DNA of 64,000 nucleotides from Armatimonadota bacterium (GCA_037445735.1 JBBIJY010000004.1:60674-124673); one strand, 5' to 3'. Numbered from the stretch's first letter, positions 9,509 through 30,888 are shown. The notes: generated by a model from the letters alone, not told the origin. A program made the numbers and translations.

Positions 9509-9532
9509 TGTCTGTCACCTCCATACGCCCCT

Positions 9533-10854: not shown

Positions 10855-10928
10855 TTTTCTCAACCTCCCCATGCGGTACTGTGGTGTGGAAACAGTTGAC
10901 CCGCACCACCCGCTGCGGTTCCAGCAGG

Positions 10929-10961: not shown

Positions 10962-10968
10962 TCGCGCG

Positions 10969-12135: not shown

Positions 12136-12319
12136 AAGTGTCGAATAACCTGATAGGGCAGATTATCGAGCGGTTCAACTGGGCTGACATGCCGCTCGCC
12201 AGGGGAGAAGAGCCTCTCCCGTGCGTGCGCGTTTGGTCGGCAGCTGCCCCAAATGGCAGGAATCGCTACGAGCATAGCGAATCTTGTTCGAATGCACTCT
12301 ACGAGGAGGTTATAGAGCG

Positions 12320-14508: not shown

Positions 14509-14583
14509 CCGTCAAAAAAGCAGGCAGGAATAGGGGAACGCCTGCCGAACCAATTGGACGCAGAAGAGGAGGTTTAGTCAACA

Positions 14584-17500
14584 GTGGCTAAGCGATGGTG
14601 GCTGATTCTGACGGCACTGATCATCGGGAGCGTTGCTTTTGGGCAGAACACGGCAAGCGAGCGTCCGTGGGAGGAGGTGTACCGCAACCGTCCCAATCGG
14701 CACGTGCTGCCGAACGCGCGTCCGCGCACGATTCCACGCCAGAACTATCGGGAGGTGCCGCCCTTCCCCCGCTGGCAGGGGAGCCTTCAATGGCAAAAGG
14801 GCGGACTGTTCGATCCGCAGCGATTCCATCAACAGCGGCAGTCTCAACAGCAGCGTTCGCGCGCGCCGCGCTGGGATCGCGACCTGACCAACGCGCCCAC
14901 CGACGAGCTGCATCCTGTCTATGCATCGCGTGCTACCCGCATGTTCTTTGCCAGCAACGCCACCGCCGTCGTGGATGGACGCCTGGCAAACCCCGGTCCC
15001 TATTATCATATCTGGCGCGGCGACCTGGACGACGGCAGCAACCCCGACCTGGGGCAGCTGACCAACTACACCCAGATCACGGGCGATACTCCCGATGAGC
15101 AGTTCTCGTCCCAGATTCAGCCCAGCACCAACGCGAACGGGCACCTCCTCGCCTATGCCTCCCGCTCCGCTGCCGGGAGCTATAACATCATCATTCGGAA
15201 CCTGACCACCAACCAGCGGGTGATTCTCACCACCGACAACAACGGCGTGACGCAGAACCTGCGTCCAACGCTGGATCCGGGCGGAGGGCTGGTTATTTTC
15301 TCTTCGAATCGGCTGGAGGCAGGCGAGACGGAAGCCGACCGCCGATTTCGGCTCTACATGGCACGCGCGGATGGGCGTCCCTTCGATGACGGGCTCTTCC
15401 TGAAACGCCTCACGACCCCTGCCCCTGGCGAGAACGACATCGAACCGGCATGGTCGCCCGATGGCAGTCGGGTGGCGTTCGTGCGAACCTTTGCGGACGG
15501 CAGCAGCTACATCTTTATGCTGGATGTGCGCAACCTCAATATCGGGCAATGGACGAACTTCGTGGATAACAACAATAACCGTCCGCAAGATCGCCAGCCT
15601 GCGTGGACCATCGACACCGACGGCTCCCTGCATCTGGTGTTTGCCTCCACGCGCAAGTCGCTCGATAATCAGGGGCGCCACCAGCGACAGCAGCCGTCGA
15701 ACAGCGTGGACACCACCAATCGGATTTTCGATATCTATGAGATTGGCACCGACATCCCTGAGGAGCTGGGCGCCGTTGTACGCTCCATCACCGCCGATCC
15801 CAGCACGCCCGCACTGGCACGCCCCAACTACCCGGGCGACACCGAGCAGCTGGCAGGCGCCCTGTATCCGACGGGCGCCTTCCGCGAGCGCAACCGCGTC
15901 GCCTATCAGTCCACTCGCCTCAACGAACAACAAAACCAGGGCCCACACGACCTCTGGGAGACCTTCCGAACCGACACTATCCCACCCGTAATGGAGTTAC
16001 TGCCCGTCGTCAACCCGAAAGAGGTCTATCCGCCCGGCTCGAATGTGACTATCCGCATCCGCGTGGTGGACTTCCAGAGCGGAGTTCAGTTCGTGCGCAT
16101 CCAGATCAAAGACCCCGATAGCGCCGAACAGGACGAGGAAGGGCTGGAACATAAAATTTATCTTTTCTCGACAGAGGTGGTTGATACCCAAAATATTATT
16201 ATTCCGGTATTTATCGAGATCGGTCAGCAGGCGATTCACCCGGAGACCTATGAGTATAAAGACCCCTATGTGCTGGCGCCGCTGGGCTTCAATGGTCGCT
16301 TGGAAGACACACTGGCATTGCGGTATGTGCCCGATGATCCGAACAACCCTGATCCCACCCAATCGGGCTGGTGGGAGGTCACCTGGCGCACGCCCGATGT
16401 CGCCAGCGATTTCTACATCGATGTTATCGTGCGCGACAATGCGGGGAATGAGTTCCTCTACGACAATATCTCCGGCTTCACCACGAAGATATTCACGGGT
16501 GGCAACCGCATCCTGCTGGTGTCGGACTATGCGGCGGGACAGATGTTCGTGCAGAACCGAATCGGTGTGGTGGGCAACTCGGTGGGACGCCCGACCTGGC
16601 TCCCTGTGGAAAGCTACTGGACTGATAACCCGACAGGCAAGCCACCGTTTGATATTGCCATTAGTCCAGCTGGTGTGCCTATCATCGGGGACGGAGCCAT
16701 TCCCAGCCCCACGGTACCGTTCCAATTCATTCGCTCCGACACGCTGGGGAGCAACACGACCTACGGTAACCTGTACGAGATCTGGCGGGTGCAGTGTCGG
16801 AACCCGATCTCGCCCTCGGTGCTGGCAGGCTATCTACCCCGCTATGAGCGGGAGCCAACCGATTTGCAGGGTGGATTCCGCACCAAGTTGCATGCCGAGC
16901 GTATTGTGGTATGGGCAAGCCCCTACACGGGTGACCTGTGGGCAGGAGCAGGGCATCTGCTGGATCCTGAAGTCCAGACACTATTGCGGAACTTCCTGGC
17001 AGGAGCGGGTCGCCTGGTGGTCAGTGGTCAGGATGTCGCCTGGGCGCTGACCCTCGCAGGTGGTACTGCCAACGAGTTCCTCCAGCAGATTTTGCAGGCA
17101 CAGTTCGACACCGACACAGCCGAAGATGTGTTCCTGCCCATCCCGTTCGCTCGCCTGCGCCACCAGCTCGACTCCAGCGGGCTGGAAACCAACCCCGATA
17201 ATAACGATCCGAACCCGATTGCCTTCAACCCCGGCGGAATGCCCATCTGGTTCATCGTGGACGGTGGGGTTCAAGCCTCACCAGAAAATCTGCAAATCGC
17301 TGACCCCGCCACGATGTTGCCCAGTAGTGCGATCCTGCGTATCATACCGCCAACCGCACTTAACGGCATCAACAGCGACGGCGCCTGGAACCAGATCTGG
17401 CTTGACACGATCTTCACCAATCCGAACGAACGAGCGCCCTACAAGTACACCAACCCTGGCATCACGAACGATGCTCAGCGCCAGCGTGCGGGTACCTACT

Positions 17501-20049
17501 ACGAGAACACAGCCAACAAATCCAAAATCCTCTACCTTGCTTTCGGGCTGGAAGGTGTCGACTCGGGCTACGAGGAGATTGCTGGCGTCATCTGGTGCAG
17601 CGCCTTCCGCAATAAGGTGTTGCATAACGCCTTCGGCTGGATGACGCACAGCGTGCTGCGCGGCGTCGTGCGCGAGTACGATCCCGAAACCCGCACCTAT
17701 CAACCGCTGCCGCGTGCCTTCGTGCGGGTCACGGGCATTCTGCCGAACAGTGTCAACGGTGTGGAGGTGGGCTACGCCATCACCGACTCGGCAGGTGAAT
17801 ACACCATCTTCGGAATAGAGGCGGGGCTTTACCTGGTGGACGCCATTCGCCCTGGCTATCGTGTGCAGCACCCGGAGACCGTGATTTTAGTCGCGCAGGA
17901 GTTTGAGCTGAATCTGGTGATGCTGAAGGTGCCGCCCGGGCAAATCAGCGGGCGGGTCATCGATATTAACAATCAGCCCGTGCGCTATGCCCTGGTACGA
18001 GCCACCAATGTGGACGACCCAACCCTCACCATCGAGGTGTTGAGCGATCCCGACGGCAACTTCCTGATGCCACGCGTGCCAGTGGGTACCTGGAATGTGG
18101 CCGTGGTCTCGCTGGCGCTGGGTGGCTACACACTACCGCCTGTTCGCCCGCAGCCCGACGGCGTGTTCCGCAATGTGCAGGTGCAAGCAGGTCAGACCAC
18201 GCAACTACCCGAACCCTTCGTGCTGGAGCCACTGCCCGGCACCATTCGCGGGCAGGTCACCCGCGCCGATAACGGGCAGCCAATTCAGGGCGCGCGCGTG
18301 GTCGCCATCGCCAATAATGTGGAGCGCGGCTCCGCCACCACCGACGCCAGCGGCAACTACAGCTTCCAGGTGCCCGGCGGCGAATACCAGGTGACGGCGA
18401 CGGCGCCCGGCTTCGCACCCAGCACCCAAACCGTCACCGTGCCCCGCGAAGGCGAAGTGGTGGTGAACTTCCAGCTGGCGAAACTGCCACCAGGGCGCGT
18501 GACGGGGCGCGTGGTGCGCAAGTTCGGCGGCGCACCCGAGCCCGGTGTCACGATCGAACTGCTCTTTGGCAACACAGCAGTGTATCGCACGCAAACCGAT
18601 TCGAGCGGAACCTATACGCTCAATAGCGTGGAGCCGGGCGACTATGTGGTGCGCCCGACCAAGACAGGCTTCACCTTCGAGCCGCCTACACGCACCATCA
18701 CGGTTCAACCGAACCAGACGACCACCGTAGGCGACTTCAAGTCGCAGCCGTTGCGCACCTTCTTCCGCGGGCGCAGCCTGGTGTCGGCGCCCTTCGATTA
18801 CAGTCAGGATATTGCCGACCTGCTCGATGTGCCACCCGACCAGCGGCGCTTCCCTGACTTCCGATTCTTCACCTGGGACACGGTGAACAGCCGCTACATC
18901 TTCTATCCCGACGCGCCCGCCAACCGCTTCGCGCTCGGACGCGGCTACTTCATCGAGACCACGCAGGACCTGCCGCTGGCAACCGAAGGCACACCCGCCG
19001 ACGAGAATCAGAGCTTCCCGATACCTCTGCGACGCGGCTGGAACCTGATTGGCACGCCGTTCCGATTCGACATCGACTGGGAACAGACCCAGGTGATTGA
19101 CCCCGACACCAACACGCCCATCTCCAACGCGACGGCGGTCGGCAAGCAGATTATCGCGAATGCGCTGTGGGGCTATGCGTTCGGCACCTACAACGCCACC
19201 CGCCGCATGAAAATCTGGGAGGGCTACTGGGTCTACGCCTATAAGGACACCACGCTGCTGATCCCGCCCACAGCGCGGGCGCGCTCGGCGGTCAGTCGCA
19301 GTGTGGACGCACCGACGCCTGCTGGCTGGACGCTCGCGCTGCAGGTGCAATCGGGCGAGCTGATGGATCAGGCGTACATCGGTGTCTCGCGTGGCGCATC
19401 GCCGGGCTATGACGCCGCGCACGACCTGCTCAAGCCGCCGCCCGTCGGGCGCGACTATGTGTATATCAGCATGCCGCGCCTGAACTGGGGCGCGCAGAGC
19501 GGTATGTACGGCGTGGATGTGCAGGCGCCCTCGCGCAGCGCGAGCTGGGAGTTCACCGTCGAGACCACCCAGCCCAATCGCGAAATCACCCTGCGCTGGC
19601 CCAACATCCACCTGCTGCCCCGCTCGGCGAACCTGGTGCTGGTGGACCTGCAGACGGGCGCCCGCCGCTACCTGCGCACCACCGGCTCCTACACCTTCCG
19701 CAGCCCGCAAAACGGTGTCAGCCGATTCCGAATCGAGCTGGCGTCCAGTGCAGGGCTGTTGCGCATCGGCAATGTGCAGGTTACAGGTGGGCGTGGCAAC
19801 CAGCGCACCATCACCTTCACCCTGACGGGCGAGGCGAGCGTGGAGGTCAGCGTGCTGGCAGGCGGCAGAGTGGTGCGCCAGCTGCTGACCAGTGCCGGAC
19901 GCAGCGCGGGCGTGCAACAGGTCAGCTGGGATGGGCGCGACCAGAACGGCATCGCGCTACCACCTGGCACCTACACCGTCGAAATTCGAGCGGTGAGCGA
20001 GGATGGGCAGGTGGCACGCGCCGCCACCACCATCATCCTCACCCGATAA
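14584..20049 (+). CDS. Large secreted multidomain protein: TolB-like propeller, GATase-like domain, carboxypeptidase-regulatory-like repeats, shared C-terminal module with FlgD-Ig-like tail
   Basis: Signal peptide (SVAFG); PAWSPDG PD40 repeat; about four G.V...G.P..GA.V...TD..G.Y repeats; tail V.WDGRD..G..LPPGTY. Confidence 0.8.
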   Translation: MAKRWWLILTALIIGSVAFGQNTASERPWEEVYRNRPNRHVLPNARPRTIPRQNYREVPPFPRWQGSLQWQKGGLFDPQRFHQQRQSQQQRSRAPRWDRDLTNAPTDELHPVYASRATRMFFASNATAVVDGRLANPGPYYHIWRGDLDDGSNPDLGQLTNYTQITGDTPDEQFSSQIQPSTNANGHLLAYASRSAAGSYNIIIRNLTTNQRVILTTDNNGVTQNLRPTLDPGGGLVIFSSNRLEAGETEADRRFRLYMARADGRPFDDGLFLKRLTTPAPGENDIEPAWSPDGSRVAFVRTFADGSSYIFMLDVRNLNIGQWTNFVDNNNNRPQDRQPAWTIDTDGSLHLVFASTRKSLDNQGRHQRQQPSNSVDTTNRIFDIYEIGTDIPEELGAVVRSITADPSTPALARPNYPGDTEQLAGALYPTGAFRERNRVAYQSTRLNEQQNQGPHDLWETFRTDTIPPVMELLPVVNPKEVYPPGSNVTIRIRVVDFQSGVQFVRIQIKDPDSAEQDEEGLEHKIYLFSTEVVDTQNIIIPVFIEIGQQAIHPETYEYKDPYVLAPLGFNGRLEDTLALRYVPDDPNNPDPTQSGWWEVTWRTPDVASDFYIDVIVRDNAGNEFLYDNISGFTTKIFTGGNRILLVSDYAAGQMFVQNRIGVVGNSVGRPTWLPVESYWTDNPTGKPPFDIAISPAGVPIIGDGAIPSPTVPFQFIRSDTLGSNTTYGNLYEIWRVQCRNPISPSVLAGYLPRYEREPTDLQGGFRTKLHAERIVVWASPYTGDLWAGAGHLLDPEVQTLLRNFLAGAGRLVVSGQDVAWALTLAGGTANEFLQQILQAQFDTDTAEDVFLPIPFARLRHQLDSSGLETNPDNNDPNPIAFNPGGMPIWFIVDGGVQASPENLQIADPATMLPSSAILRIIPPTALNGINSDGAWNQIWLDTIFTNPNERAPYKYTNPGITNDAQRQRAGTYYENTANKSKILYLAFGLEGVDSGYEEIAGVIWCSAFRNKVLHNAFGWMTHSVLRGVVREYDPETRTYQPLPRAFVRVTGILPNSVNGVEVGYAITDSAGEYTIFGIEAGLYLVDAIRPGYRVQHPETVILVAQEFELNLVMLKVPPGQISGRVIDINNQPVRYALVRATNVDDPTLTIEVLSDPDGNFLMPRVPVGTWNVAVVSLALGGYTLPPVRPQPDGVFRNVQVQAGQTTQLPEPFVLEPLPGTIRGQVTRADNGQPIQGARVVAIANNVERGSATTDASGNYSFQVPGGEYQVTATAPGFAPSTQTVTVPREGEVVVNFQLAKLPPGRVTGRVVRKFGGAPEPGVTIELLFGNTAVYRTQTDSSGTYTLNSVEPGDYVVRPTKTGFTFEPPTRTITVQPNQTTTVGDFKSQPLRTFFRGRSLVSAPFDYSQDIADLLDVPPDQRRFPDFRFFTWDTVNSRYIFYPDAPANRFALGRGYFIETTQDLPLATEGTPADENQSFPIPLRRGWNLIGTPFRFDIDWEQTQVIDPDTNTPISNATAVGKQIIANALWGYAFGTYNATRRMKIWEGYWVYAYKDTTLLIPPTARARSAVSRSVDAPTPAGWTLALQVQSGELMDQAYIGVSRGASPGYDAAHDLLKPPPVGRDYVYISMPRLNWGAQSGMYGVDVQAPSRSASWEFTVETTQPNREITLRWPNIHLLPRSANLVLVDLQTGARRYLRTTGSYTFRSPQNGVSRFRIELASSAGLLRIGNVQVTGGRGNQRTITFTLTGEASVEVSVLAGGRVVRQLLTSAGRSAGVQQVSWDGRDQNGIALPPGTYTVEIRAVSEDGQVARAATTIILTR

Positions 20050-20056
20050 CGCTTTC

Positions 20057-20083
20057 GCCCGTTCCCCCGCGCGGGGAACGGGC
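20057..20083 (+). other. Intergenic stem-loop without U-tract
   Basis: GCCCGTTCCCC-CGCGC-GGGGAACGGGC, 11-bp stem. Confidence 0.7.
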
Positions 20084-20137
20084 AGGAAGCAAGCCGTTCA
20101 CAAAGAAAATAGACAACGGTAAGGAGGAACGACCAGA

Positions 20138-21943
20138 GTGAAAACACGGAGGCGACGAATCTGGGCAAAACGCTGGAGCCTGGTGGGCGTCGTCAGCATG
20201 CTGCTGATGTGGCTGCTGACGCCGTTTGGCATACCACCTGCACGGGCACAGCTGGTGCAACTGCCGCGCATTGCGGTTATCGATTTCCAGAACAAAAGCG
20301 GCTACGGCGGTGCCAGCATCGCGCGCGCCGCCACCGACGCCGTTGCCAGCGAGTTCCAGAAAACGGGGCGCTACGAGGTGCTGGCGCGGGGCGAGATCGA
20401 ACAGCAGCTCAAAGACCTCGATTTAGCTCCCCCGCTGAGCAAAACGGGCTACCTGCGACTGGGACGCGCCCTCCAGCTCGAATCGATTGTGGCGGGCGAT
20501 GTGGAAGCCGTCACCTTCACTGGCTCCCCGAAGCAGGCACAGGTAACCCTCACGGTCAAGGTGATCGATGTGGCATCGGGTGAGCCGGTGAACGGCGCGG
20601 TCGTGACAGGCTCCAGCAACCCGCGCCCGGGCTACAGCGGCGACGACGATACCCTGGTGCTGGAGGCTGTGCGCAACGCCGCCTTCGAAGCGGTACGCAC
20701 CATTCAGACCTACACCATCCCGGAAGCGACCGTGCTGACCACCCGCGCGGGCAAGGAGGTGCTGCTCAATCGTGGCATTCGCGGCGGGCTGAAGCCCGGC
20801 ATGGAAATGATTGTTATCCGCAACGGCGAGGAAGTCGGGCGCATCCGCATCACCGAAGTGTCCGATAGCGACGCCGTGGGCGTGATCATCCAGTCGCTGC
20901 GCGGCATCCAGACCGAAGACAAAGCGCGTGCCGTGTTCGAAATACCCTCAGTCAAAATCAAAGCGGGCAAAGTGATCAAAGAGGAGCCACGCAGTCGCAC
21001 GGAGCGCAATCGGGCGCTCAAAGCGCTGGGTCCAATCCTTGTGCTGGGGCTGATTGCGTTCGGCGTCGCACGCGCGGCATCAGGCGGCAACACACCCGTG
21101 CAGGATGTCATCGCCGAAGCGGGTGCCGACGGCAACTTCGAACCCTTCGTGCGGATCTCATGGAAGACCACCCTCTTCGCCAAGAGCAACCGCGACCAGA
21201 TCCAGTGGCAAATCTACCGCTCCGACTTCATCGACATCGACGGCAACGGCAATATGATCCCGGTGGGTGTGGTGCCGGGCAATCAGCACTCCTTTATTGA
21301 CACCACTGTGCCGCGCGTGGTGAACTACGCCAGCCTGCCACGCGAGGGCAGTGAGGACCTGGGTCTGGAAGAGGTCGATACCGCGCCAGGCGTCGCGCCA
21401 GGACGATCCTACACTTACCAGCTGGCTCTGGTCTATCGTGAGGTGCGTGATGTGGCAGGTGGTGGCACGGGAGGCGGTGGCGGGCAGCAGCAGCAGGTAA
21501 TCTTCCTGATGTCGGATCGGGTGCGTTCCGGGCAGGCGACCGTCATTCAGCCCGTGCAGCTGCTGACCCCTGTCCAGCGCAGCGAGGATGTGGACCCGAA
21601 AGACATCCTTTTCAGCTGGCTGGCGTCGGAGGGTGCCAACGCCTACCGCATCGAGGTCTCCACCGATCCCACCTTCCGCGACCGTAGCCGAACCTTCGTC
21701 TCGGCGGAGATCCTTTCCACAGCGGTGGGCGGTAGCCCCGTTAGCCCACCAGACCGAATCAATATTGAATCGGCGCTGCTGCAGCGGCTGGGGCTGGTGG
21801 GTCGGCGCGTCACGCTCTACTGGCGCGTGGGCGCCCGCAACCTGAACGATAACCCCGGTCCCATAGCGGGTCCAGGTGGTCTGCGCTATGTGTGGAGCCG
21901 ACCGTTCGAGTTCACCACGCAGGAGCTGCCGCCACCACCCTGA
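20138..21943 (+). CDS. Secreted protein with a CsgG/HfaB(TolB-N)-like domain, FlgT-C-like domain, internal hydrophobic helix and FN3-like domains
   Basis: Signal ending ARA; RIAVIDFQN..GRYEV..R..LGR.L....IVAG.V..V.V.VIDV.SGE; LNRG..GLKPGM...GRIRITEV. Confidence 0.68.
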   Translation: MKTRRRRIWAKRWSLVGVVSMLLMWLLTPFGIPPARAQLVQLPRIAVIDFQNKSGYGGASIARAATDAVASEFQKTGRYEVLARGEIEQQLKDLDLAPPLSKTGYLRLGRALQLESIVAGDVEAVTFTGSPKQAQVTLTVKVIDVASGEPVNGAVVTGSSNPRPGYSGDDDTLVLEAVRNAAFEAVRTIQTYTIPEATVLTTRAGKEVLLNRGIRGGLKPGMEMIVIRNGEEVGRIRITEVSDSDAVGVIIQSLRGIQTEDKARAVFEIPSVKIKAGKVIKEEPRSRTERNRALKALGPILVLGLIAFGVARAASGGNTPVQDVIAEAGADGNFEPFVRISWKTTLFAKSNRDQIQWQIYRSDFIDIDGNGNMIPVGVVPGNQHSFIDTTVPRVVNYASLPREGSEDLGLEEVDTAPGVAPGRSYTYQLALVYREVRDVAGGGTGGGGGQQQQVIFLMSDRVRSGQATVIQPVQLLTPVQRSEDVDPKDILFSWLASEGANAYRIEVSTDPTFRDRSRTFVSAEILSTAVGGSPVSPPDRINIESALLQRLGLVGRRVTLYWRVGARNLNDNPGPIAGPGGLRYVWSRPFEFTTQELPPPP

Positions 21944-21961
21944 GCGCAGTACGATTCTCAA

Positions 21962-21991
21962 GCCGTTTCGGGAGGTCTCTCCCGAAACGGC
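21962..21991 (+). other. Intergenic stem-loop without U-tract
   Basis: GCCGTTTCGGGAG-GTCT-CTCCCGAAACGGC, 13-bp perfect stem. Confidence 0.7.
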
Positions 21992-22056
21992 ATACCCGTT
22001 TGAGCGTCAGAACAGATGAGAGTGCGATTGGGAACCAATCGGGAGGGAAGCAACCG

Positions 22057-24996
22057 ATGAGATGGATGTGGCGACTGTGGCTTGGATGGGTGCTGATCGT
22101 GGGCTGCGCGGCAGCCCAGACGCTGACACCCAACGATGTGGTGCCTGGCGAGATTCTGCTGACGATGCGCGCGGGCAGCCCGATTGAGAAGGTGCGTGCG
22201 CTGGCAAACAGTGTGAATGCCGATTTGCGCCCGATCCGTGTGCCCGCCACCTATGTACTGCGCCTGCGCGACCAGCAGGGCGTAACGGACGCCGTGCTGC
22301 TGGAGCGGGTTCAGCGCGCAGTGGATCAGCTTAAACAGGATGCGGATGTGTTGTATGTCCGCCCGAACTACATCCGCCGACCTGCCGATATACCGAACGA
22401 CCCGCGCTTTGGCGAGCAGTGGGCGCTCACTCTGATTCGGGCACCCGAAGCCTGGGATCAGGAGAAGGGGCAGGCGGGTGTTCGGCTCGCCATCATCGAC
22501 ACGAACTTTGACCGCAATCATCCCGATTTGACCGCGCGTTTTGACCCCCTCTCGCGCAACTTTGTGGCAGACCCTCCCGATGACAATATTGGTCCTGATC
22601 CAGGGGTCTCTTTTTCTCATGGCACAGCGGTTATGGGTGTTGCGGCTGCCAGCACCAACAACGGGGTTGGCATTGCGGGGCTATGCTGGCAAGGGGTTAC
22701 AGTCGTCGCCCTAACCACTACCAAGCAAGACACATTTCTACCGCTGGACAATATTCTGGAAGCCATGCAGCATGTGATCGACAATGCACGCGACAGTAGC
22801 GGCAATCAACAAATTCATGTGGTGAACATGAGTTTTGGCAGCTCCTTCCCTGACCCGCAGGAAAACAGCCTGATCCAGCAGATGTATCAGCGCGGGGTGG
22901 TGCCGGTCGCTGCTGCAGGGAATGAAAACTCTTCCTCGCCGCTCTATCCTTCTGACTACGAGAACGTGATCAGGGTGTCCGCAGTTGGTCCATCCGGTCT
23001 GAAGGCATCCTACTCGAACTATGACCGCATCGATCTGGCTGCACCCGGCGGCGATTTCCAAACAAGTTTGCGTGACGGGATTCTCAGTACGGAAGTCGGC
23101 GGGCGTTATGAGTATAATGTGGGTACCTCCCTTGCCTCACCGTATGTGGCAGCAGCGGTGGCATTGTTGATCTCGGCTGGCGCGCCTGTGCATGACCCCA
23201 ATCGGGACCCCATCCCCCCTGCCCAGGAGGCGCTGCAGGAGACTGCCAATACGATGCAGCGCACAGTGCCCGATCCCGAGCTGGGCTGGGGCATCATTGA
23301 TGTGGGTTCCGCTATTCGGGGCTTCGGCGGCGCCAGCGTCACGATTGTAAGCCCCGCGAACAACACCTTCACCGACACCCGACGCATGCGAATCAATGTG
23401 GTTGTGCGTCGCAGCACGCTGCCCCAGATTCGCCTCTTCTTCATGGGCGAGGAAATCCCGCGCTCGCAGTGGGAGCCGTTCGCAGGTGTCTCCAGCGATG
23501 GCAAAACCATCACCATTTCTGGCTATGAGCTGGTCGCGCCGGGTGAGGGGCGCTTCGAATTCACCGTAACAGCAGTGGGACAGGACGGCAATCCCGTGAG
23601 TGCGACCTCCACAATTACTGTGCGTTCCCGCCAGCAGCCAGCAGGTCTGGCGATGTTCGCCACACCCTATCGTGTGAGCGGGACACCCGAAGAGATTTTC
23701 GGCGCGGATGCGATTCTGGCGCGCTACCTGCCGTCGCAGGGTCGCTACGCGCGCTACTCTGGCAGCGGCACACGCGAGCCGGAAGCGAGCTTCAATCCGC
23801 CGGGTGCGCGCGTGCGCCCTGAAGGGAGCGCGATTCCCACCCCGCCACGCGGACTGGGCTACTTCCTGCGCACGAACAGCCCCGCCTTCATTCTGGGTGA
23901 CGAGTTCATCGATCCGAACACCGCCTACCTGATCCCGCTGGAACCGGGCTGGAACATGATTGGCAACCCGTTCCCATTCCCGGTACCCTGGAGCGCGTGC
24001 GAGATTGAGGTGGAAGGGCAGGCAGGCGTGCGCCAGCGGTTCAGCATTCTGGAGGCTGCTGACAAAGAATATATTCGCCCGCAAATCTATCGCTATATCA
24101 CGCTCACGGGCGAATACACATGGCGCACGGCGCCGCTGGGCGAGCTGCTGCCCTGGCAGGCGCACTGGGTGCGGGCACTCAAACCCTGCACGCTGATTGT
24201 GCCGCCGCTGGGCACAACCCGCAGCCGTGACGAGTCAGCCTCCGGTAACCCGCGCGTTACACCGGACACGCGCGACGGCTGGCTGATCCGCCTCATCGCC
24301 CGCAGCGGCGATCGGGAAGACGCCAACAACTTCATCGGAGTCAGCCTGCGCGCCCGCGACGAGATGGGCAGCGAAGATGTGGAGAAGCCACCGCTGTTCC
24401 AGTCATATGTGCAGCTGCGTGTAATCGAACCGCGCAGCCGCGCTGCGCTCGCGCAGGACCTGCGACGGGCTGCTAAACGCCGAATGCGCTGGGAACTGGA
24501 AATCACCACCGACAAGCCCAACGCGGAGGTCACACTCCGCTGGCAACAGGAGGTGCCGCTGCCAACCAGTATGCGACTGACGCTGGTGGATAGCCTCACA
24601 GGGCAGCGCATCTCGATGAATCGCCAGAGCGCGTACACCTTCCGCACCGATGAGAACAGCCGCCGGCGGTTTATTGTCGAGGCACACCCTGCACGCCTGA
24701 GCCAGCTGCGCATCACGAACTTCACCGTCGCCCGCACGCGCGGCAACCAGGTCACCATCCAGTACGCGCTGAACGCGGCCGCCAGCGTGCAGGTGCTGGT
24801 TCAGGATTCGGCGGGGCGAACGATTGCGCGTCTAACAGGCGGCACCCGCTCGGCAGGGCTGAACAGTGTTACCTGGACAGGGCGCACCGATTCGGGTATC
24901 GCCGTGCCACCAGGCACTTATCAGATTCAGATTATCGCGACGGGCGAGGAGGGCGACACAGCCCGCGCCGTGCGCCCGCTCGTCATGACCCGCTAA
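22057..24996 (+). CDS. S8 (subtilisin-like) serine peptidase with shared C-terminal module
   Basis: Signal peptide, prodomain, PNDP..QW; catalytic triad IIDT / SHGT / GTSLASP; AAAGN; FlgD-Ig-like tail; ATG 22057 with GGAGG. Confidence 0.9.
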   Translation: MRWMWRLWLGWVLIVGCAAAQTLTPNDVVPGEILLTMRAGSPIEKVRALANSVNADLRPIRVPATYVLRLRDQQGVTDAVLLERVQRAVDQLKQDADVLYVRPNYIRRPADIPNDPRFGEQWALTLIRAPEAWDQEKGQAGVRLAIIDTNFDRNHPDLTARFDPLSRNFVADPPDDNIGPDPGVSFSHGTAVMGVAAASTNNGVGIAGLCWQGVTVVALTTTKQDTFLPLDNILEAMQHVIDNARDSSGNQQIHVVNMSFGSSFPDPQENSLIQQMYQRGVVPVAAAGNENSSSPLYPSDYENVIRVSAVGPSGLKASYSNYDRIDLAAPGGDFQTSLRDGILSTEVGGRYEYNVGTSLASPYVAAAVALLISAGAPVHDPNRDPIPPAQEALQETANTMQRTVPDPELGWGIIDVGSAIRGFGGASVTIVSPANNTFTDTRRMRINVVVRRSTLPQIRLFFMGEEIPRSQWEPFAGVSSDGKTITISGYELVAPGEGRFEFTVTAVGQDGNPVSATSTITVRSRQQPAGLAMFATPYRVSGTPEEIFGADAILARYLPSQGRYARYSGSGTREPEASFNPPGARVRPEGSAIPTPPRGLGYFLRTNSPAFILGDEFIDPNTAYLIPLEPGWNMIGNPFPFPVPWSACEIEVEGQAGVRQRFSILEAADKEYIRPQIYRYITLTGEYTWRTAPLGELLPWQAHWVRALKPCTLIVPPLGTTRSRDESASGNPRVTPDTRDGWLIRLIARSGDREDANNFIGVSLRARDEMGSEDVEKPPLFQSYVQLRVIEPRSRAALAQDLRRAAKRRMRWELEITTDKPNAEVTLRWQQEVPLPTSMRLTLVDSLTGQRISMNRQSAYTFRTDENSRRRFIVEAHPARLSQLRITNFTVARTRGNQVTIQYALNAAASVQVLVQDSAGRTIARLTGGTRSAGLNSVTWTGRTDSGIAVPPGTYQIQIIATGEEGDTARAVRPLVMTR

Positions 24997-25009
24997 TGGA
25001 GGAAAGACT

Positions 25010-27742
25010 ATGAGGCGGTTCTGCATATCGGAATGGGTTTTAAGCGTTATGCTGGTCGTCATGAGCCTGACGCCTTTATGGGGGCAGCGCGTGTACGATC
25101 CCTTCAGCCTTGCAGGTTGCTGCTGCCCCACCGATCAGGGCACCTGCGTCGAGAGACCAGTCAGTGATGATTACTTCGATATCAGTGTAACAAATGGCGT
25201 GCTGGGTGCCACTTTGGGGATAGATGGAACAGTTCAGTGGAATACAGCTTGCTTCCCGATGACCAATACGCGGTGCATCACGCTGCAGGCAGAGGGCAGT
25301 ATCCAGCTTGGAACCGCTGGCGGGACCAGCCTGCTGCGCAGTAATGATGATAATATCGCGATGACCTCTGGCTACCCATGGGCAGTCTATCCTGGTGGAA
25401 TTTATATCAGCATGCAGGAACGGCGTGGGAACCAGACGCGCACCTTCGTGTGGGGACGCGAACAGGGCGCTCCCAGCCTGATTTTCGATCGTGCCTGGCC
25501 GGGCGCCAGCGGTGTCTATATTCGCCGCCAGTGGTATGTGGAAGGCTGGAACACCGACATGCGTATCGAGCTGATTCAGTCGGTGGCGCGAATCGAGCTG
25601 CGCGTGCGCAACACTGGCACCGAATCGGCGTCGCTAGCGCTGCGTATGGCGTCCGATGTGGAGGTGGGTGTCGAGGAAGGCGTGGACCCGAACGGCGCGT
25701 CGCGACCCCCCTATGTCTATGTGCAGGGTCAGCGCCCCATCAGGGTAGATACCGATCTGCGCGGCGTGCAGGTGCCGCCTGCGGTGGAGTTCTATCTCTC
25801 ACGCGGCGATCTCAACGGCGCATCACGCTACATCCTGCGCCCGATGCCTGGCTTCGAAGATGCCACCCCCATCGACCGTCTGGTGTTCGGCGAGTGGTTC
25901 TTCATTCAGGCAACCACCAACTGGGAGCCGGTGCTGTTCCCCGACAGCTTTATCAGCGATGTGGCGATTAACATGTTTGTGAATCCGCGCAACTTCGCGC
26001 CGGGTCAAGAGCGTGTCTATGTGTTCTATGTGATGCTGACCCCTGTGGATATCGATGTGCAGCCGCCCCTGGCGGTGGGTGTGGAAACCTTACCCGTGAT
26101 TGAGCCGAATGAGCGCGACCTGTCCCAGCTGGCTAATGGAGGCGTGTTCGATGTGAATGTCTCGGTCACCAACATGTTCCATGTGGTGAACAAAGAGGTT
26201 GATCTCCGAAATGTGGCTGTCGATATTGCGCTGCCTTCAGGTTTGAGCCTTGCCCCGGGTGAAACGCGCACCAGGATTATTCCCAGCATTCCATCCGAGG
26301 CGACCCGACCCGTGAGCTGGCGGGTAATTGCTGACCCGAAGGCGGTGGGCTTTGCCACCATTCGTGTCTCGGTGAATGCGCCGCCCGCGCCGCCCAAGAC
26401 GGTCAGTCGCACCATCCTGATTTCCGCCACAGCGCGCCGCGAGCTGAAACGCGGATTCCAGATTATTTCTATCCCATTCACAACCACGGCGCCGCTGGTC
26501 GATGTGCTGGGTCTGCCAGAAGGCACTTACCTTGCCAAACGCTGGAACCCCAATCGGGAAGTGTACGAGACGGTGGATGTCCTGCAGCCTGGCATCGGCT
26601 TCTGGCTCTACCTGCCCAACGAGGGCACGACCATCACCATGAACAATGTATCTTTCTCTTCCAGCATGGCTTTCACCACCGGCGTGCCCATCCGCCTCAG
26701 CCGCGGATGGAACCAGATTGGCAATCCCTACCCGTATCCGCTGGTGCTGGGGCAGATTGTGGTGGTGAGCGCGAGCGATCCACGCACCAGCCTCAGCTTC
26801 TTCGAAGCTGCCCAGCGTGGGGTCATTCGCGGCGTCATTTACTACTGGGACGAGTTCTCTGCCGAATATAAGTTCACTTCCGACCCCAACACACCCCTGA
26901 TTCCGCACAGGGGCTACTGGATCAAGTGCAACGATGATATCGATCTGGTGTTCCCGCCGGTGTTCCTGCCGGGCACGGGGTTTGGCAGGTTGCCGAATCG
27001 GTCGGTCGATTCAGCGAATCGCCCCAACGAGTGGCGTCTGCAGCTGATTGCCCGCACCGAGCGCGGCGAGGATAGTCAGAACTATATCGGCATCACCAGC
27101 GGTCGCTCGACGGGTGAGGTGGAGGAGCCGCCAGCACCATTAGCCGAGGTGCCCGTGCGCCTGACCATTCTCAAATCGGGCACGAACACGCCGCTGATGC
27201 AGGATGTGCGTCCTGCCTCCGCCACACGCCACACCTTCGAACTGCTGGTGGAGGCGCCCGCGGGCACAGAAGTGAGCCTGCGTGCGCCCAATGTGCGCAC
27301 CGTGCCGCGCACCTACCGCCTGCGCCTGACCGATCAAAGCACAGGGCGCACGGTCGACCTGCGCAACACGCCCGAATATCGCTTTACCTCCAGCGGGCGC
27401 AACCGATTCACGCTGAGTGTGGAGCGCGGCGTGCGCGGTAGCGCGCTTATCACCAGCATCAGCGTGGGCGCAGTGGGGCGCGGCGCGAACAGCGTCAGCA
27501 TCTCCTATGTGCTGGCGCAGGACGCCCAGACCAATGTGCAGATTCTGGGCGCGGATGGACGCCTCATCGCCAGCCTGCAACAGGGACGCGCCGCCACACG
27601 CGGCGTGAACACTGTCGTCTGGAACCTGCGCGATAACGCCGGACGCGCGGTGCCACCCGGCACCTATCGCGTGCAGATCGAAGCCCGCGACTCCGACGGG
27701 CAAATCGCACGCGCGGTACGACCGCTGATCGTAACGCGCTAA
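25010..27742 (+). CDS. Secreted protein, unknown N-terminal domains, with shared C-terminal module
   Basis: Signal peptide, Cys-rich N-terminus, RGWNQIGNPYP, tail VVWNLRD..G..VPPGTY..ARAVRPLIVTR; GGAGG SD. Confidence 0.78.
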   Translation: MRRFCISEWVLSVMLVVMSLTPLWGQRVYDPFSLAGCCCPTDQGTCVERPVSDDYFDISVTNGVLGATLGIDGTVQWNTACFPMTNTRCITLQAEGSIQLGTAGGTSLLRSNDDNIAMTSGYPWAVYPGGIYISMQERRGNQTRTFVWGREQGAPSLIFDRAWPGASGVYIRRQWYVEGWNTDMRIELIQSVARIELRVRNTGTESASLALRMASDVEVGVEEGVDPNGASRPPYVYVQGQRPIRVDTDLRGVQVPPAVEFYLSRGDLNGASRYILRPMPGFEDATPIDRLVFGEWFFIQATTNWEPVLFPDSFISDVAINMFVNPRNFAPGQERVYVFYVMLTPVDIDVQPPLAVGVETLPVIEPNERDLSQLANGGVFDVNVSVTNMFHVVNKEVDLRNVAVDIALPSGLSLAPGETRTRIIPSIPSEATRPVSWRVIADPKAVGFATIRVSVNAPPAPPKTVSRTILISATARRELKRGFQIISIPFTTTAPLVDVLGLPEGTYLAKRWNPNREVYETVDVLQPGIGFWLYLPNEGTTITMNNVSFSSSMAFTTGVPIRLSRGWNQIGNPYPYPLVLGQIVVVSASDPRTSLSFFEAAQRGVIRGVIYYWDEFSAEYKFTSDPNTPLIPHRGYWIKCNDDIDLVFPPVFLPGTGFGRLPNRSVDSANRPNEWRLQLIARTERGEDSQNYIGITSGRSTGEVEEPPAPLAEVPVRLTILKSGTNTPLMQDVRPASATRHTFELLVEAPAGTEVSLRAPNVRTVPRTYRLRLTDQSTGRTVDLRNTPEYRFTSSGRNRFTLSVERGVRGSALITSISVGAVGRGANSVSISYVLAQDAQTNVQILGADGRLIASLQQGRAATRGVNTVVWNLRDNAGRAVPPGTYRVQIEARDSDGQIARAVRPLIVTR

Positions 27743-27797
27743 AGTTGACGGGGGTAGCCGTCAAAGCTGCCCCCAAACCGAACAGGGAGGCAAATCG

Positions 27798-28484
27798 GTG
27801 AAACGGACTGTTCTGACCGGGGCACTCATGATTCTGCTGCTCGCATGCGCGTTCGCCAGCACGCGCGAGCTGGTCATCTTCCCCTTCGGCATGAGCAGCG
27901 GCGTGCAGCAGCCGCAGGATTTCAACCTGAATACGGAGCTGACGAACGCGCTCTACGCCCAGCTGAAGGCGATCCCTGACCTGTATGTGATGCGCTTCAA
28001 GGAGACGAACCCCGCGGTGCGCCGTGCGCTGGATGAGAACCGCCTGCGCCGCGACCGTCTGAACCCGCCCTTTAATGTGCGTGAGGCGGACGGCACATGG
28101 CGCTCCGCCCGAATCGGGCAGATTCTGGGTGTGACCTACGCGCTGGCAGGCACCATCGAAGAGTTCCGCTATGACCCCAATACCCGAACGGCAACCATCA
28201 CGGTGAGCCTGGACCTGGTGCAGGTGTCGGACGGCGCCGTGCTGGTCTCACTGGCGGAGACGGGTCAGGGACGCCTGAGCGGCGATGACCCGAACACTGC
28301 CTATATAGCCGCGATTGCCGATGTCGCTAAGAAGCTGGGTGCGTCGTTGCAGCAGCGGTTGACCCCACCGGCGCCTGCCGAGCCACCCAGAACACCGAAA
28401 GCGTCCACCCGTCGCACGGAACGAGCCGCTGCTGCCCTTTTCGGATTGCTGATCTTGGTGGGGTTACGGCTCACCGTTTTCTAA
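27798..28484 (+). CDS. CsgG/TolB-N-like secreted protein with C-terminal hydrophobic anchor
   Basis: Signal AFA; LVIFPF..IGQILGV.YAL.GTI..I.VSLDLV.V.DG; Pro-rich linker, then RRTERAAAALFGLLILVGL. Confidence 0.6.
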   Translation: MKRTVLTGALMILLLACAFASTRELVIFPFGMSSGVQQPQDFNLNTELTNALYAQLKAIPDLYVMRFKETNPAVRRALDENRLRRDRLNPPFNVREADGTWRSARIGQILGVTYALAGTIEEFRYDPNTRTATITVSLDLVQVSDGAVLVSLAETGQGRLSGDDPNTAYIAAIADVAKKLGASLQQRLTPPAPAEPPRTPKASTRRTERAAAALFGLLILVGLRLTVF

Positions 28485-28487
28485 CGC

Positions 28488-30434
28488 ATGCGAATCGGGT
28501 TGTTGTGCAGGGCGCGTTTGAGCTGGGCAGGGAGTCTATGGCTGGCTCTCTGCCTGCTTGCTCATGGCGGTTCAGGCACCATTCGGCTCACGGCATATCC
28601 CACCGCGCTCGTGGCGGATGGGGCATCGTCCATCACGCTGACAGCCGAGGTACGCACCGCGCAGGGCAAACCGGTGCCTGACGGCACCCAGATCACTTTC
28701 AGCACCACGCTGGGCACGCTGCGCGAATCGGTGGTTCCTACTGAAGGCGGTGTGGCGCGCGCGACGCTGATTGCCAGCCAGCTGCCCGGCGTCGCGCTTG
28801 TCACCGCCACCGCGCTGGGGCAGGGGCTTGTGGCGCAAACGCAGGTGATGATGGTGCGCGACGCCAGCGAACTGCGCACCGCCACCGACTATGTGCAGGT
28901 GACCGCCCCCGACTATCTGGCTTACGCGAACGAACAGCGCGTGATTGCCGCCAGCGGGCGCGACAAAGGCGCAACCATCCAGTACGGCTTCATCCGAATC
29001 GAAGCCGACGACCTGCAACTGCTGGTGGACGACCTGCAGGTGAAAGCCCGCAACGCGGCGCTCCAGTATGGACCTGCCGCGCTCAGCTTCGATGAGCTTG
29101 CCTTCAACCTGCGCACGGGCGACGGTTATGGAACGGTTCAGCAGGAGGGGCGATGGCAGGTGATGCGCGTTCAGGGCGCTCAGGCGACCCCTGTGCAGGC
29201 GCCGCTTCCACCAGAGATGTTTCGCTTCGAGGACATCTCCCAATCGGAGATGGTCATCAAGGCGGAGCAGATATGGTTCTATCCGGGCGAGCGACTGCAG
29301 TTCCATCGTGCCGATTTTTATGTGGGTGCAGTGCGGGTGATGAGCCTGCCGCTCTATTCGCACAGCCTGTGGGGGGGCGGTGTGGGCACCGATACCCTGA
29401 TTGGCGTGCAGGGCGGTCAGCTCTATCTCGATCTGCCGTATTACTATGCGCTCAAGCCGGGTCAGGTAGGCGCGTTGCGGTTGCGCACGGCGCAGCGGGG
29501 CGGTCGCGGCGTCAGCAGCGCGCGCGGGCTGTTCCTGGATCTGGAGCATGAGTACCGTTTCGGGCTGGGCAGGGGGAGTTTCACGCTGTCCAGCCTTGCC
29601 CGTGAGGATTGGGGCGTCAGCTGGCGCCACTATCAGCCGCTGGGCGCGTCGATGCGCCTGAACCTGTGGCTCGACTCGCCCGCGCACAGGGGTCTGTTCG
29701 CCTCCGCGCAGCTGTCGCATCAGGGCAGGGGCTACTCCACCGGGCTGACGCTCGCGGGCAGCACCTTCTGGGAGGGCACTCGCGCCCGCACCCTGCGCAC
29801 CGAGTTCTATGTGGAGAGCAACCCGCGCAAGGTGACTAACTGGCCGCTGCGCCAGAGCGTCTCGCTGAATCTCAGCTCCGCGCGCACGCACCTGAGCGGT
29901 TCATCGGGCACGCGGCGCGACGGGGTGGGACTGCGCGCCCGCTGGACGCTCGTGCCGCTCGATCTGGACAGCCGTACCACACTGACAGGCGGGTTGAGCA
30001 TCGGGCGCTTTCTGGGCAACCTGCCGAACGCAGGCTGGGAACTGCTCGGCTCGCTGGGCATCTCGCATACGCTGGGCAGCGGCGCCCTCACGCTCACCTA
30101 CGACTACGCGCAGGACCCGCTCGGCATCAACCTGCTGGGACAGCACCGGCTGTCGGGCAGCCTCAACTGGGCAATTGGCGACCGCCTCTACGCCACCGCC
30201 TATGGCAGCCGCTCACTCGATCGGGACGCCACCAGCCTCATCGCCGACCTCTCATGGCGGCTGGGCACACGCTGGCGCATCGGCACGGGCATCACCTGGC
30301 AGCAGTTTCACGGCTCCGCTTTCCGCGACCAGACCTACACCATCGCCTATCGGCTCGGATTCCGCGAACTCGCGCTCACATGGTCCACTTTTAGCCGCCG
30401 CTGGAGCTTTGATCTGCTGACCGTTTTTTATTGA
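28488..30434 (+). CDS. Invasin-type Ig (Big_1) domain plus LptD-like outer-membrane beta-barrel protein
   Basis: LTA.P..LVADG.S..T.TAEV....G.PVPDGT..TF.TTLG; amphipathic Gly/aromatic-rich strands; terminal aromatic residues (VFY). Confidence 0.6.
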   Translation: MRIGLLCRARLSWAGSLWLALCLLAHGGSGTIRLTAYPTALVADGASSITLTAEVRTAQGKPVPDGTQITFSTTLGTLRESVVPTEGGVARATLIASQLPGVALVTATALGQGLVAQTQVMMVRDASELRTATDYVQVTAPDYLAYANEQRVIAASGRDKGATIQYGFIRIEADDLQLLVDDLQVKARNAALQYGPAALSFDELAFNLRTGDGYGTVQQEGRWQVMRVQGAQATPVQAPLPPEMFRFEDISQSEMVIKAEQIWFYPGERLQFHRADFYVGAVRVMSLPLYSHSLWGGGVGTDTLIGVQGGQLYLDLPYYYALKPGQVGALRLRTAQRGGRGVSSARGLFLDLEHEYRFGLGRGSFTLSSLAREDWGVSWRHYQPLGASMRLNLWLDSPAHRGLFASAQLSHQGRGYSTGLTLAGSTFWEGTRARTLRTEFYVESNPRKVTNWPLRQSVSLNLSSARTHLSGSSGTRRDGVGLRARWTLVPLDLDSRTTLTGGLSIGRFLGNLPNAGWELLGSLGISHTLGSGALTLTYDYAQDPLGINLLGQHRLSGSLNWAIGDRLYATAYGSRSLDRDATSLIADLSWRLGTRWRIGTGITWQQFHGSAFRDQTYTIAYRLGFRELALTWSTFSRRWSFDLLTVFY

Positions 30435-30450
30435 CGGGAGGGACTGCCCT

Positions 30451-30888
30451 GTGCGTTCGTCAACGGTCGCTGTATGGGTGTTGCGATTGCTCGGCGTGGG
30501 CTTTCTGGTATTCGGGCTGCTGTTCGCCTTCGCGCCGGCGGGCACCCTCGAATATTTTAACCGCTGGGGTCAGGCGCTGGGCTGGCAGGAGCCGATGCCC
30601 CTCGATGAGGGCGGACTCTGGCGGGTGCTGGCGGTTGCCTTCATGGTGATGGTGACGGTGCTGGCGTTCTGGGGCGCACAGCCGACTCCGGCGCGTCCCG
30701 CCCTGCTGATGGTGCTGACCCTCGGCAAGCTCAGTTCCTCCCTGCTGGCGCTGCTGTTCTACTGGCTGGTTGCTCCCCACTTTATCTACCTGCTCAACTT
30801 TGCGGTGGATGGCTCCATCGCGCTGATCGTGTTCTGGTGTCGGCAAGTGTTGCGAGGCGCCGATTCGGCGGGAGGGATTGCCCAATGA
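30451..30888 (+). CDS. Small integral membrane protein (about 4 TM)
   Basis: Four hydrophobic segments; stop overlaps the next start. Confidence 0.65.
   Translation: MRSSTVAVWVLRLLGVGFLVFGLLFAFAPAGTLEYFNRWGQALGWQEPMPLDEGGLWRVLAVAFMVMVTVLAFWGAQPTPARPALLMVLTLGKLSSSLLALLFYWLVAPHFIYLLNFAVDGSIALIVFWCRQVLRGADSAGGIAQ

Follow-up and report, generated by a model that had tools for sequence, protein, structure and literature searches.

Positions 14584-30434 of a 64,000-nucleotide stretch of Armatimonadota DNA (hereafter the window) hold an envelope operon inherited vertically within the armatimonadotal class Fimbriimonadia and conserved, as six genes, in hot-spring Armatimonadota; its last gene encodes a very divergent member of the LptD family of outer-membrane proteins. 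With moderate confidence, the operon can be read as encoding an outer-membrane translocon of the LptDE type whose partner proteins are particular to the lineage; candidates for these partners are two proteins with a domain related to LptE, PelC and CsgG (g2 and g5) and three secreted proteins with a common C-terminal tail (g1, g3 and g4).

The region is filled by six ORFs (g1-g6), all of which, like every feature described below, lie on the + strand. The gaps between them are 88, 113, 13, 55 and 3 bp, when g3 is started at M56, and these ORFs and gaps confirm the six co-oriented, tightly spaced genes of the first-pass annotation. The longest ORF for g3 begins at 21892; the real start is probably M56, at 22057, because an identical database protein (P0007, 100% identity) is 979 aa in length. 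The cluster, which has a GC content similar to that of the remaining window, is bounded upstream by the conserved neighbours rpsA (S1) and coaE (12284-14508). Signal peptides had been ascribed to all six products: a crude Kyte-Doolittle scan found an N-terminal hydrophobic segment in g1, g2, g4 and g5, while the N-termini of g3 (from M56) and g6 resemble signal peptides by eye only.

A tailed g4-type gene immediately precedes g6, or is separated from it only by g5, in 34 of the 36 loci with a g6 relative, synteny which indicates a conserved unit, not a chance neighbourhood. Of the six genes, only g2, g4 and g6 form a core present throughout the class. The remaining genes, g1, g3 and g5, are additions of the thermophilic clade; g5 itself was found only in this clade, with a longer g5-like gene in locus L035. 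The rpsA-coaE pair also precedes g2 in L026-L028 and L030-L032, the cluster adjoining it in both clades. An arrangement of this kind could be no more than envelope genes that have stayed neighbours while their products are not physically coupled, in which case g6 would be a housekeeping LptD and the others unrelated secreted proteins of the same operon. There is precedent in E. coli K-12, where lptD adjoins surA, a gene outside the Lpt pathway, such that a common neighbourhood need not mean a common pathway; likewise, L034 and L041 contain a g6 relative without g2 or g5 genes, or any tail gene in the flanks, and class-wide conservation extends to just three of the six genes. We nevertheless consider such a loose association rather improbable, as the g2-g4-g6 order and tight spacing have been kept among orthologues at ~30% protein identity, L035 again groups g6 with g4-like and g5-like genes, the latter having an Fn3 part, and the gene before g6 in L034 and L041 is again a secreted S8 protease or Big_1 Ig protein.

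The core gene g6 (28488-30434) encodes a 648 aa protein shown by Pfam, AF2, Foldseek and profile searches to be an LptD-family outer-membrane protein, comprised of a periplasmic Ig domain, an OstA-type jellyroll and a barrel of about 22 strands. These appear in that order in the AF2 model (mean pLDDT 81.5) as a Big_1/Invasin_D3 Ig domain (28578-28856, residues 31-123; Pfam and AF2), a beta-jellyroll (28893-29366, residues ~136-293; AF2 and profile) and a beta-barrel (29400-30419, residues ~305-644; AF2), the strand number being a count from the DSSP line of the model. In a Foldseek search with this model, ranks 1-15 were all LptD (E 7e-15 to 1e-11, probability 1.0), at TM-scores of only 0.27-0.32. 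A profile of 43 family members matched Neisseria gonorrhoeae LptD (7omm_A, E 1.2e-9, query 152-420 on chain 104-379), a further LptD (8h1r_A, E 1.2e-3) and LptA (8onu_A, E 1.9e-3). Similarly, hhalign aligned the family with E. coli LptD over 138 columns at the jellyroll-barrel junction (E 1.3e-4), an earlier comparison with 21 closer sequences not having been significant (E 0.16). This alignment places the LPYYY of g6 on the LPYYW of E. coli LptD, in which P246, a proline of the first barrel strands, has a role at the lateral gate; P317 of g6 is one of only three columns invariant among the 43 sequences, and the second E. coli proline, P231, has no aligned counterpart. Neighbours of g6 in the ESM Atlas bear OstA_2, LptD_N, LptC or DUF3769 with LptD_N, and the family profile also reaches a PF04453-annotated protein (P0336, E 4.8e-4).

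No g6 relative meets the cut-off of any Pfam Lpt model. PF04453 (LptD) was matched by 0/21 relatives at E ≤ 10 and 0/36 at E ≤ 0.01, and LptD_N was recorded, below its threshold of 20.4 bits, in two of 36 (19.0 and 17.5 bits) and none of the 21 in the closer set; the Big_1 Ig domain was present in all 36 distant relatives checked. Taking Foldseek, the profile match and hhalign together, the product initially described as an LptD-like barrel is genuinely, if remotely, homologous to LptD. The 36 full-length loci come from 36 different assemblies, one in each, which fits a single-copy gene. In common with LptD of the LptD-LptE systems of E. coli, Neisseria and others, g6 possesses a periplasmic jellyroll followed by a large barrel and retains the LPYY(W/Y) motif, gate proline included, and its small neighbour g5 falls in the same alpha/beta fold class as LptE. 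It differs in the addition of an N-terminal Big_1 Ig domain, in having about 22 strands when the proteobacterial (E. coli) LptD barrel has 26, and in the lack of a Pfam LptD or LptE match; furthermore, the putative partners are non-lipoproteins with a hydrophobic helix, and the operon encodes tailed secreted proteins but lacks lpt genes, none of which were found elsewhere in the window or next to the g6 relatives of L034 and L041.

The second core gene, g2 (20138-21943, 601 aa), is present in both clades, and Pfam and hydropathy divide its product into a signal peptide, a CsgG/TolB_N/LpoB-type alpha/beta domain (20258-20737, residues ~41-200), a small beta domain, a hydrophobic helix (21014-21079, residues 293-314) and an Fn3/SusE-like C-terminal part. 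The much shorter g5 (27798-28484, 228 aa) consists of a signal peptide, a PelC/LpoB/CsgG-type alpha/beta domain identified through profile searches (about 27861-28367), a Pro-rich linker and a C-terminal hydrophobic segment (28422-28481). Both had been labelled CsgG/TolB-N-like, a resemblance that is weak but real. For g2 it is supported by a score of 24.3 bits against the Pfam CsgG cut-off of 20.8 (profile positions 8-151 of 210), and 8 of its 13 orthologues match CsgG at E ≤ 1, with TolB_N and LpoB each found in three. The g5 protein is related to g2 (BLASTP E 3e-5; g5 HMM on g2 E 4e-6); it has no Pfam match at E ≤ 0.01, and CsgG reaches only 12.3 bits at E ≤ 10. The sole PDB matches of the g5 profile at E ≤ 10 are PelC entries, namely 5t11_A (E 3e-5), 5t10_A (E 3.7e-5) and 9h80_C, named PelC (E 0.57), and span only ~70 residues of common core; Pfam LptE was matched by none of 14 g5 sequences or 13 g2 orthologues. 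One paper describes a single alpha/beta core common to LptE, PelC, CsgG and PqiC, with LptE acting as a single plug in LptD and PelC as a 12-mer ring beneath the porin PelB (PMC13631591). These comparisons show g5 and the N-terminal domain of g2 to be paralogous members of the alpha/beta superfamily that includes LptE, PelC, CsgG, PqiC, LpoB and TolB-N.

This wider LptE/PelC/CsgG/LpoB/TolB-N affiliation replaces the CsgG-like label. Unlike LptE, PelC and CsgG, neither protein has a conserved lipobox, and nothing indicates a CsgG-type beta-pore. In g2 the signal peptide lacks Cys and closes with a conserved AxAQ, and the Cys in that of g5 is not conserved among 14 orthologues; the segment following the alpha/beta domain of g2 is a hydrophobic stretch of the alpha type, and no membrane-spanning hairpins were identified. 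Like CsgG of the curli (type VIII) secretion system, g2 has a periplasmic alpha/beta domain, but its match stops at profile position 151, it lacks a lipobox and carries an alpha-helical hydrophobic segment, and a Pfam scan of 50 window ORFs, those of the cluster included, yielded no csgA/B/E/F. The core of the g5 profile matches PelC, and the g5 gene lies beside that of an outer-membrane barrel. One alternative is a PelBC-like export gate, in which a periplasmic ring of g5 and g2 would funnel an exopolysaccharide or other polymer into g6 and the tailed proteins would act on this polymer. However, the barrel resembles LptD, not PelB, and has no TPR part, g5 lacks the lipobox of PelC, the PelC match is limited to the short common core, and neither the cluster nor its flanks contain a glycosyltransferase or polysaccharide synthase; a polymer gate appears very unlikely.

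The remaining genes, g1, g3 and g4, encode secreted multidomain proteins shown to have a common tail of three domains ending in an invariant Arg. The tail, ~400 aa in length, is located at about 18937-20046 in g1, 23851-24993 in g3 and 26438-27739 in g4, and its copies are 29-35% identical across 362-464 columns (BLASTP; g1-g3 E 8e-49, g1-g4 E 2e-32, g3-g4 E 9e-45). The earlier description of three proteins with unrelated N-termini and one C-terminal module is upheld by these matches. The secreted giant g1 (14584-20049, 1821 aa; Pfam, PDB search and BLASTP) begins with a PD40/TolB-type propeller, which matches TolB in the PDB (E 2.8e-5), followed by a middle part without a family and four CarboxypepD_reg domains; g3 (22057-24996) is an S8 subtilase (Peptidase_S8, E 1.4e-39); and the N-terminal ~470 aa of the core protein g4 (25010-27742, 910 aa) have no known family in Pfam, with pLDDT < 50 for most of residues 1-354 of the AF2 model. 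The last tail domain is a FlgD-type Ig domain (FlgD_ig, PF13860), found at 19792-20001 in g1 (E 6.1e-10), 24736-24942 in g3 (E 7.6e-16) and 27479-27694 in g4 (E 1.7e-9, with FlgD matches in the PDB); the other two match no named family. The terminal Arg is invariant in all 42 S8 (g3) orthologues, as is the last column in an alignment of 16 g4 orthologues, in which the L028 row is incomplete. A lipobox-like Cys in g3 is not conserved among orthologues, and the tailed proteins are not lipoproteins.

Such a tail might be a sorting or anchoring module, the LptD-derived barrel and its PelC/CsgG-like ring subunits serving to move or anchor tailed proteins in a dedicated export or display pathway dependent on C-terminal domains and independent of T9SS. 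In the most far-reaching form of this hypothesis, the tail would be a signal read by the additional Ig domain of g6 or by the helix-anchored PelC/LptE-like subunits, and its bearers would be delivered to the cell surface or attached there, perhaps in a manner coupled to the lipid cargo. The linkage of g4-type genes to g6 among such divergent orthologues is consistent with this, as is the confinement of the tail HMM to three ORFs of the 64-kb window, all in the cluster, the co-orientation with g6 of all 76 tail-bearing ORFs across the loci, and the copying of the tail onto unrelated N-terminal parts. The terminal Ig domain and final Arg also recall the T9SS C-terminal sorting domains of Bacteroidota, Ig-like beta-sandwiches at the extreme C-terminus of otherwise unrelated secreted proteins, the last strand of which, as in the tails, is hydrophobic with a basic residue at the end, and there are weak matches between g4 and the C-terminal ends of PorU (E 1e-3) and PorZ (E 3e-3). 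By contrast, the tails match FlgD_ig (E 1e-9 to 1e-16) and not Por_Secre_tail (PF18962), which none of the three matches even at E ≤ 10; TIGR04183 is absent from NCBIfam matches at E ≤ 0.01, and the common module, about 400 aa long, includes the two additional domains without a named family. To our knowledge, Armatimonadota are outside the group where T9SS is known. The absence of T9SS and curlin genes noted in the first-pass annotation holds for the six cluster ORFs and 44 other window ORFs scanned with Pfam, with no porK/L/M/N, sprA or porU/V in the window.

A precedent is the LptD homologue BB0838 of Borrelia burgdorferi, an LptD-family barrel through which proteins are proposed to reach the cell surface and which is reported to help flip surface lipoproteins (10.1101/2022.12.21.521298). 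The cargo there is lipoprotein and the host without LPS; the candidate cargo here is not lipid-anchored, and LPS genes are reported from the phylum. In addition, folded proteins of 900-1800 aa are large for a barrel with about 22 strands, which may moreover be plugged, the g6 relatives of L034 and L041 have no tail gene in their flanks, and neither an energy source nor a periplasmic chaperone was identified. Protein export or display is a doubtful, if credible, interpretation, and it is a shade less probable still that Fimbriimonadia repurposed an LptD-type translocon for the surface display of proteins, by a sorting pathway independent in origin of the type IX system.

In the favoured LptDE-type reading, g6 would be an LptD-type translocon, along the jellyroll of which a lipid-linked cargo, most simply lipopolysaccharide, would be carried before release sideways into the outer leaflet. 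Either or both of g5 and g2 may take the role of LptE, as a plug inside the barrel, or that of PelC, as a ring under it, held by a hydrophobic helix instead of a lipid anchor. The tailed proteins would be envelope proteins docking on, or maturing with, the g6 complex, not threaded through the barrel; for instance, the tail might find a binding site in the additional Ig domain of g6 or in the Fn3-like part of g2. An LptD is to be expected, since Armatimonadetes possess the four core LPS genes, as stated in a phylogenomic paper (PMC5007114). The end of g5 just 3 bp from the start of g6 was also counted in favour of the translocon, and the lack of Pfam Lpt matches, low TM-scores, fewer strands than 26, missing lipobox and missing lpt neighbours were counted against it. 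Were the g5/g2 helix to reside in the inner membrane, the ~25-residue linker of g5 might not reach the outer membrane, and a role in LPS export only leaves the g4-g6 linkage in 34/36 loci unexplained.

Outside Proteobacteria, LptD and LptE are difficult to detect; the same phylogenomic paper, the only one returned by literature searches pairing Armatimonadetes or Armatimonadota with LptD, could find neither in diderm Firmicutes (PMC5007114). The g6 family constitutes a remote set of LptD relatives with a new Ig-jellyroll-barrel layout, which makes it a concrete candidate in Armatimonadota for the outer-membrane step of lipid export. The cluster also displays LptE/PelC/CsgG-fold proteins with a hydrophobic helix in place of a lipid anchor, and offers a testable case of three proteins with a long common C-terminal module linked to an LptD-like barrel throughout a bacterial class. 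The family comprises 501 representative clusters at E ≤ 0.001 and 252 at E ≤ 1e-30, and named close relatives are annotated by their sources as 'hypothetical', 'Ig-like domain-containing' or 'invasin domain 3-containing'.

Six closely spaced, co-oriented ORFs on the + strand, here termed g1 to g6, span positions 14584-30434 with small gaps between them, much as the first-pass annotation had described, and constitute an envelope operon that is real, conserved and for the most part unannotated. The first, g1 (14584-20049), encodes a 1821 aa protein with PD40/TolB propeller repeats and four CarboxypepD_reg domains, and is followed by g2 (20138-21943) and the S8 subtilase g3 (22057-24996). The longest g3 ORF overlaps g2, and translation probably begins instead at M56 (22057), as an identical database protein is 979 aa long. 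The first ~470 residues of g4 (25010-27742) match no family, g5 (27798-28484) has no match at E <= 0.01, and g6 (28488-30434) carries an N-terminal Big_1/Invasin_D3 Ig domain. The cluster is flanked by housekeeping genes, rpsA and coaE preceding it and a tocopherol-cyclase-like gene and one for a GMC oxidoreductase following it, and its GC content is similar to that of the remainder of the window. No T9SS, curli or lpt families were found among the six cluster ORFs and the 44 other window ORFs scanned, agreeing with the earlier remark that the window holds no recognisable T9SS core or curlin gene (50 ORFs in all). Rfam gave zero matches within the window, and a promoter and terminator scan of 13500-31500 was uninformative, with counts no higher than those in shuffles.

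The description of g6 as an Ig/LptD-like barrel is substantiated by both structure and profile comparisons. An AF2 model based on 21 orthologues (pLDDT 81.5) comprises an Ig domain (residues 30-123), a beta-rich domain (136-293) and a barrel (305-644) of about 22 strands by DSSP. When this model was compared with the PDB using Foldseek, LptD occupied ranks 1-15 (E 7e-15 to 1e-11, with low TM-scores of about 0.3), followed by pilus ushers. The Pfam LptD family matched none of the 21 g6 sequences at E <= 10, and an alignment of these sequences had no significant similarity to Escherichia coli LptD by hhalign (E 0.16). When 1.84 billion representatives were searched with a profile lacking the Ig domain, this returned 501 relatives at E <= 0.001, including 252 at E <= 1e-30. 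Among 36 distant relatives scanned, all had the Ig domain, two had a sub-threshold match to LptD_N and none matched PF04453. A profile constructed from 43 diverse family members detected Neisseria gonorrhoeae LptD (E 1.2e-9), another LptD (1.2e-3) and LptA (1.9e-3), and hhalign of this 43-sequence alignment against E. coli LptD (E 1.3e-4) placed the LPYYY motif of g6, in which P317 is invariant across the family, on LPYYW. The last homologue search with this profile recovered the same family (66 matches) and one PF04453 protein at E 4.8e-4, while neighbours in the ESM Atlas were annotated as OstA_2, LptD_N, LptC or DUF3769. Judged from these profiles and the predicted fold, g6 is a genuine, very remote homologue of LptD with a new domain layout; in the literature, LptD turned up with the phylum name Armatimonadetes in one paper, and with Armatimonadota in none.

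Conservation of the cluster was assessed across 44 loci returned by a genome scan, a biased sample in that the search used a peptide pattern taken from the Ig domain. A full g6 relative was present at 36 of these, each in a separate assembly. At 24 loci from hot-spring Fimbriimonadales the g1-g2-g3-g4-g5-g6 order is retained; 19 of them reach at least as far as the g1 tail, and contig ends truncate the other five. In nine Fimbriimonadaceae-type loci, one truncated within g4, the order is instead g2-g4-g6, without g1, g3 and g5, and rpsA and coaE lie directly upstream in all six of these with sufficient flank (L026-L028 and L030-L032). One further locus (L035) has g6 together with g4-like and g5-like genes, the latter with an Fn3 part, and at two others (L034 and L041) g6 occurs without these partners, preceded by a gene for an S8 protease or a Big_1 protein. 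This distribution over related loci identifies g2-g4-g6 as the core of a syntenic cluster; g1, g3 and g5 look like later additions through copying of the tail and the alpha/beta domain described below. That the cluster genes are merely co-located seems quite unlikely.

Three proteins with dissimilar N-termini, g1, g3 and g4, do indeed share a C-terminal module, a tail of ~400 residues with 29-35% identity and pairwise BLASTP E values of 8e-49, 2e-32 and 9e-45; a tail HMM matches only these three in the window. In the AF2 model of g4 (mean pLDDT 54, and below 50 over most of residues 1-354), the tail is predicted with moderate confidence to form three beta-rich domains (~476-650, 675-806 and 814-908). 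The last of these is FlgD_ig, and FlgD was the sole PDB match to a 16-sequence g4 profile. The first two had no named relatives: the 30 nearest ESM Atlas clusters to g4 residues 476-812 were all unnamed, and Foldseek on the g4 model found generic multi-Ig proteins only, such as alpha-2-macroglobulin and complement, at TM <= 0.12. They also exist outside the context of the cluster, since a ~1200-aa protein from an unclassified 'bacterium' MAG (L037:573-4193) contains two partial copies (tail HMM E 6e-32 and 2e-15) without a full g6 neighbour, the only Ig-domain match there being 6 kb distant. At its extreme C-terminus the tail ends in Arg in all 42 S8 orthologues listed, in the invariant last column of the g4 orthologues and also in g1. 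At the other end of g4, the region directly past the signal peptide (residues ~29-47; 25094-25150) is Cys-rich, reading CCCP...C here and CxC in orthologues, and C37 and C81 are nearly invariant among 16 orthologues, a pattern that suggests disulfides or a metal site.

The tails had been likened to the T9SS sorting domain, but none of the three matched its Pfam family Por_Secre_tail, FlgD_ig being found instead; g4 did weakly match PorU and PorZ at their C-terminal ends. Of the papers listed for type IX secretion and Armatimonad, none bore on this question judging from titles and the opening of abstracts. The wider proposal of the first-pass annotation, that the cluster is a protein export or display system, is favoured by how closely g4 stays linked to g6, by the spread of the tail as a module and by the invariant residue at its terminus. 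Against it stand the small size of the barrel, the failure to match anything of T9SS type and the want of lipid anchors, leaving it a small though real chance; the label 'undescribed secretion system' is not yet earned.

The remaining pair, g2 and g5, share one paralogous domain. Their designation as CsgG/TolB-N-like stands for g2, which has a weak CsgG match (24.3 bits against a cut-off of 20.8) and whose 13 orthologues matched CsgG (8), TolB_N (3), LpoB (3) and DUF3280 (4). Among 14 g5 orthologues, eight gave weak CsgG matches and two matched LpoB, and the g5 profile matched only PelC entries in the PDB (5t11_A, E 3e-5; 5t10_A, 3.7e-5; 9h80_C, 0.57); the g2 profile had no PDB match below E 1.9. 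According to PMC13631591, 5T10 and 5T11 are PelC-like, one alpha/beta core is common to LptE, PelC, CsgG and PqiC, and a lone LptE plugs LptD whereas CsgG and PelC assemble into rings. A PelBC-like polymer gate, another conceivable identity for the cluster, is very improbable.

Neither g2 nor g5 has a conserved lipobox in orthologue alignments, and the idea that cluster products are lipoproteins was rejected, as the lipobox-like Cys residues of g3 and g5 in the window are not conserved. Both g2 (residues 293-314; 21014-21079) and g5 (209-228; 28422-28481) possess a hydrophobic segment past the alpha/beta domain, in each case preceded, not followed, by an Arg/Lys cluster. C-terminal to this segment, g2 has Fn3/SusE-like domains, connected in Fimbriimonadaceae through Gly/Thr-rich linkers; such domains and linkers are typical of extracytoplasmic proteins. 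With a plain inner-membrane anchor they would end up in the cytoplasm, which makes the topology of g2 puzzling.

Upon the observed domain identities, paralogies and conserved linkage of these genes, an arrangement can be envisaged in which g6 would function in an LptD-like manner, g5 and/or g2 would take the role of an LptE-type plug or PelC-type ring, with a hydrophobic helix replacing a lipid anchor, and the tailed proteins would dock on the g6 complex. The simplest cargo would be LPS, because core LPS genes are present in the phylum, according to PMC5007114. The chances of this arrangement being correct are evenly balanced. A complex prediction for g6 and g5 (residues 22-228), both supplied as alignments, scored 0.00 relative to a mark of 0.32 and was uninformative either way.

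Elsewhere in the window, a low-GC patch (0.515 at 8001-10000) adjoins an N6_N4 DNA methylase, the domain of which lies at ~10116-10770 on the - strand; the 725-aa methylase ORF (9940-12117) is over-extended, overlapping a + strand amidohydrolase (10969-12135), and - strand ORFs at 7704-9061 match no family. The 8000-12135 region may be a restriction-modification or mobile remnant. On the - strand at 39462-41528, next to a Uma2-family endonuclease gene (38669-39460), an ORF encodes a protein of 688 aa that contains 11 WD40 repeats. Over 58000-64000, GC content drops from about 0.64 to 0.45-0.56; an RHS-repeat ORF on the - strand (62086-63984) runs past the window end and is followed by four small - strand ORFs without a Pfam family (58980-62079). 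The appearance is that of an acquired Rhs-type polymorphic-toxin locus that may include immunity or orphan genes.
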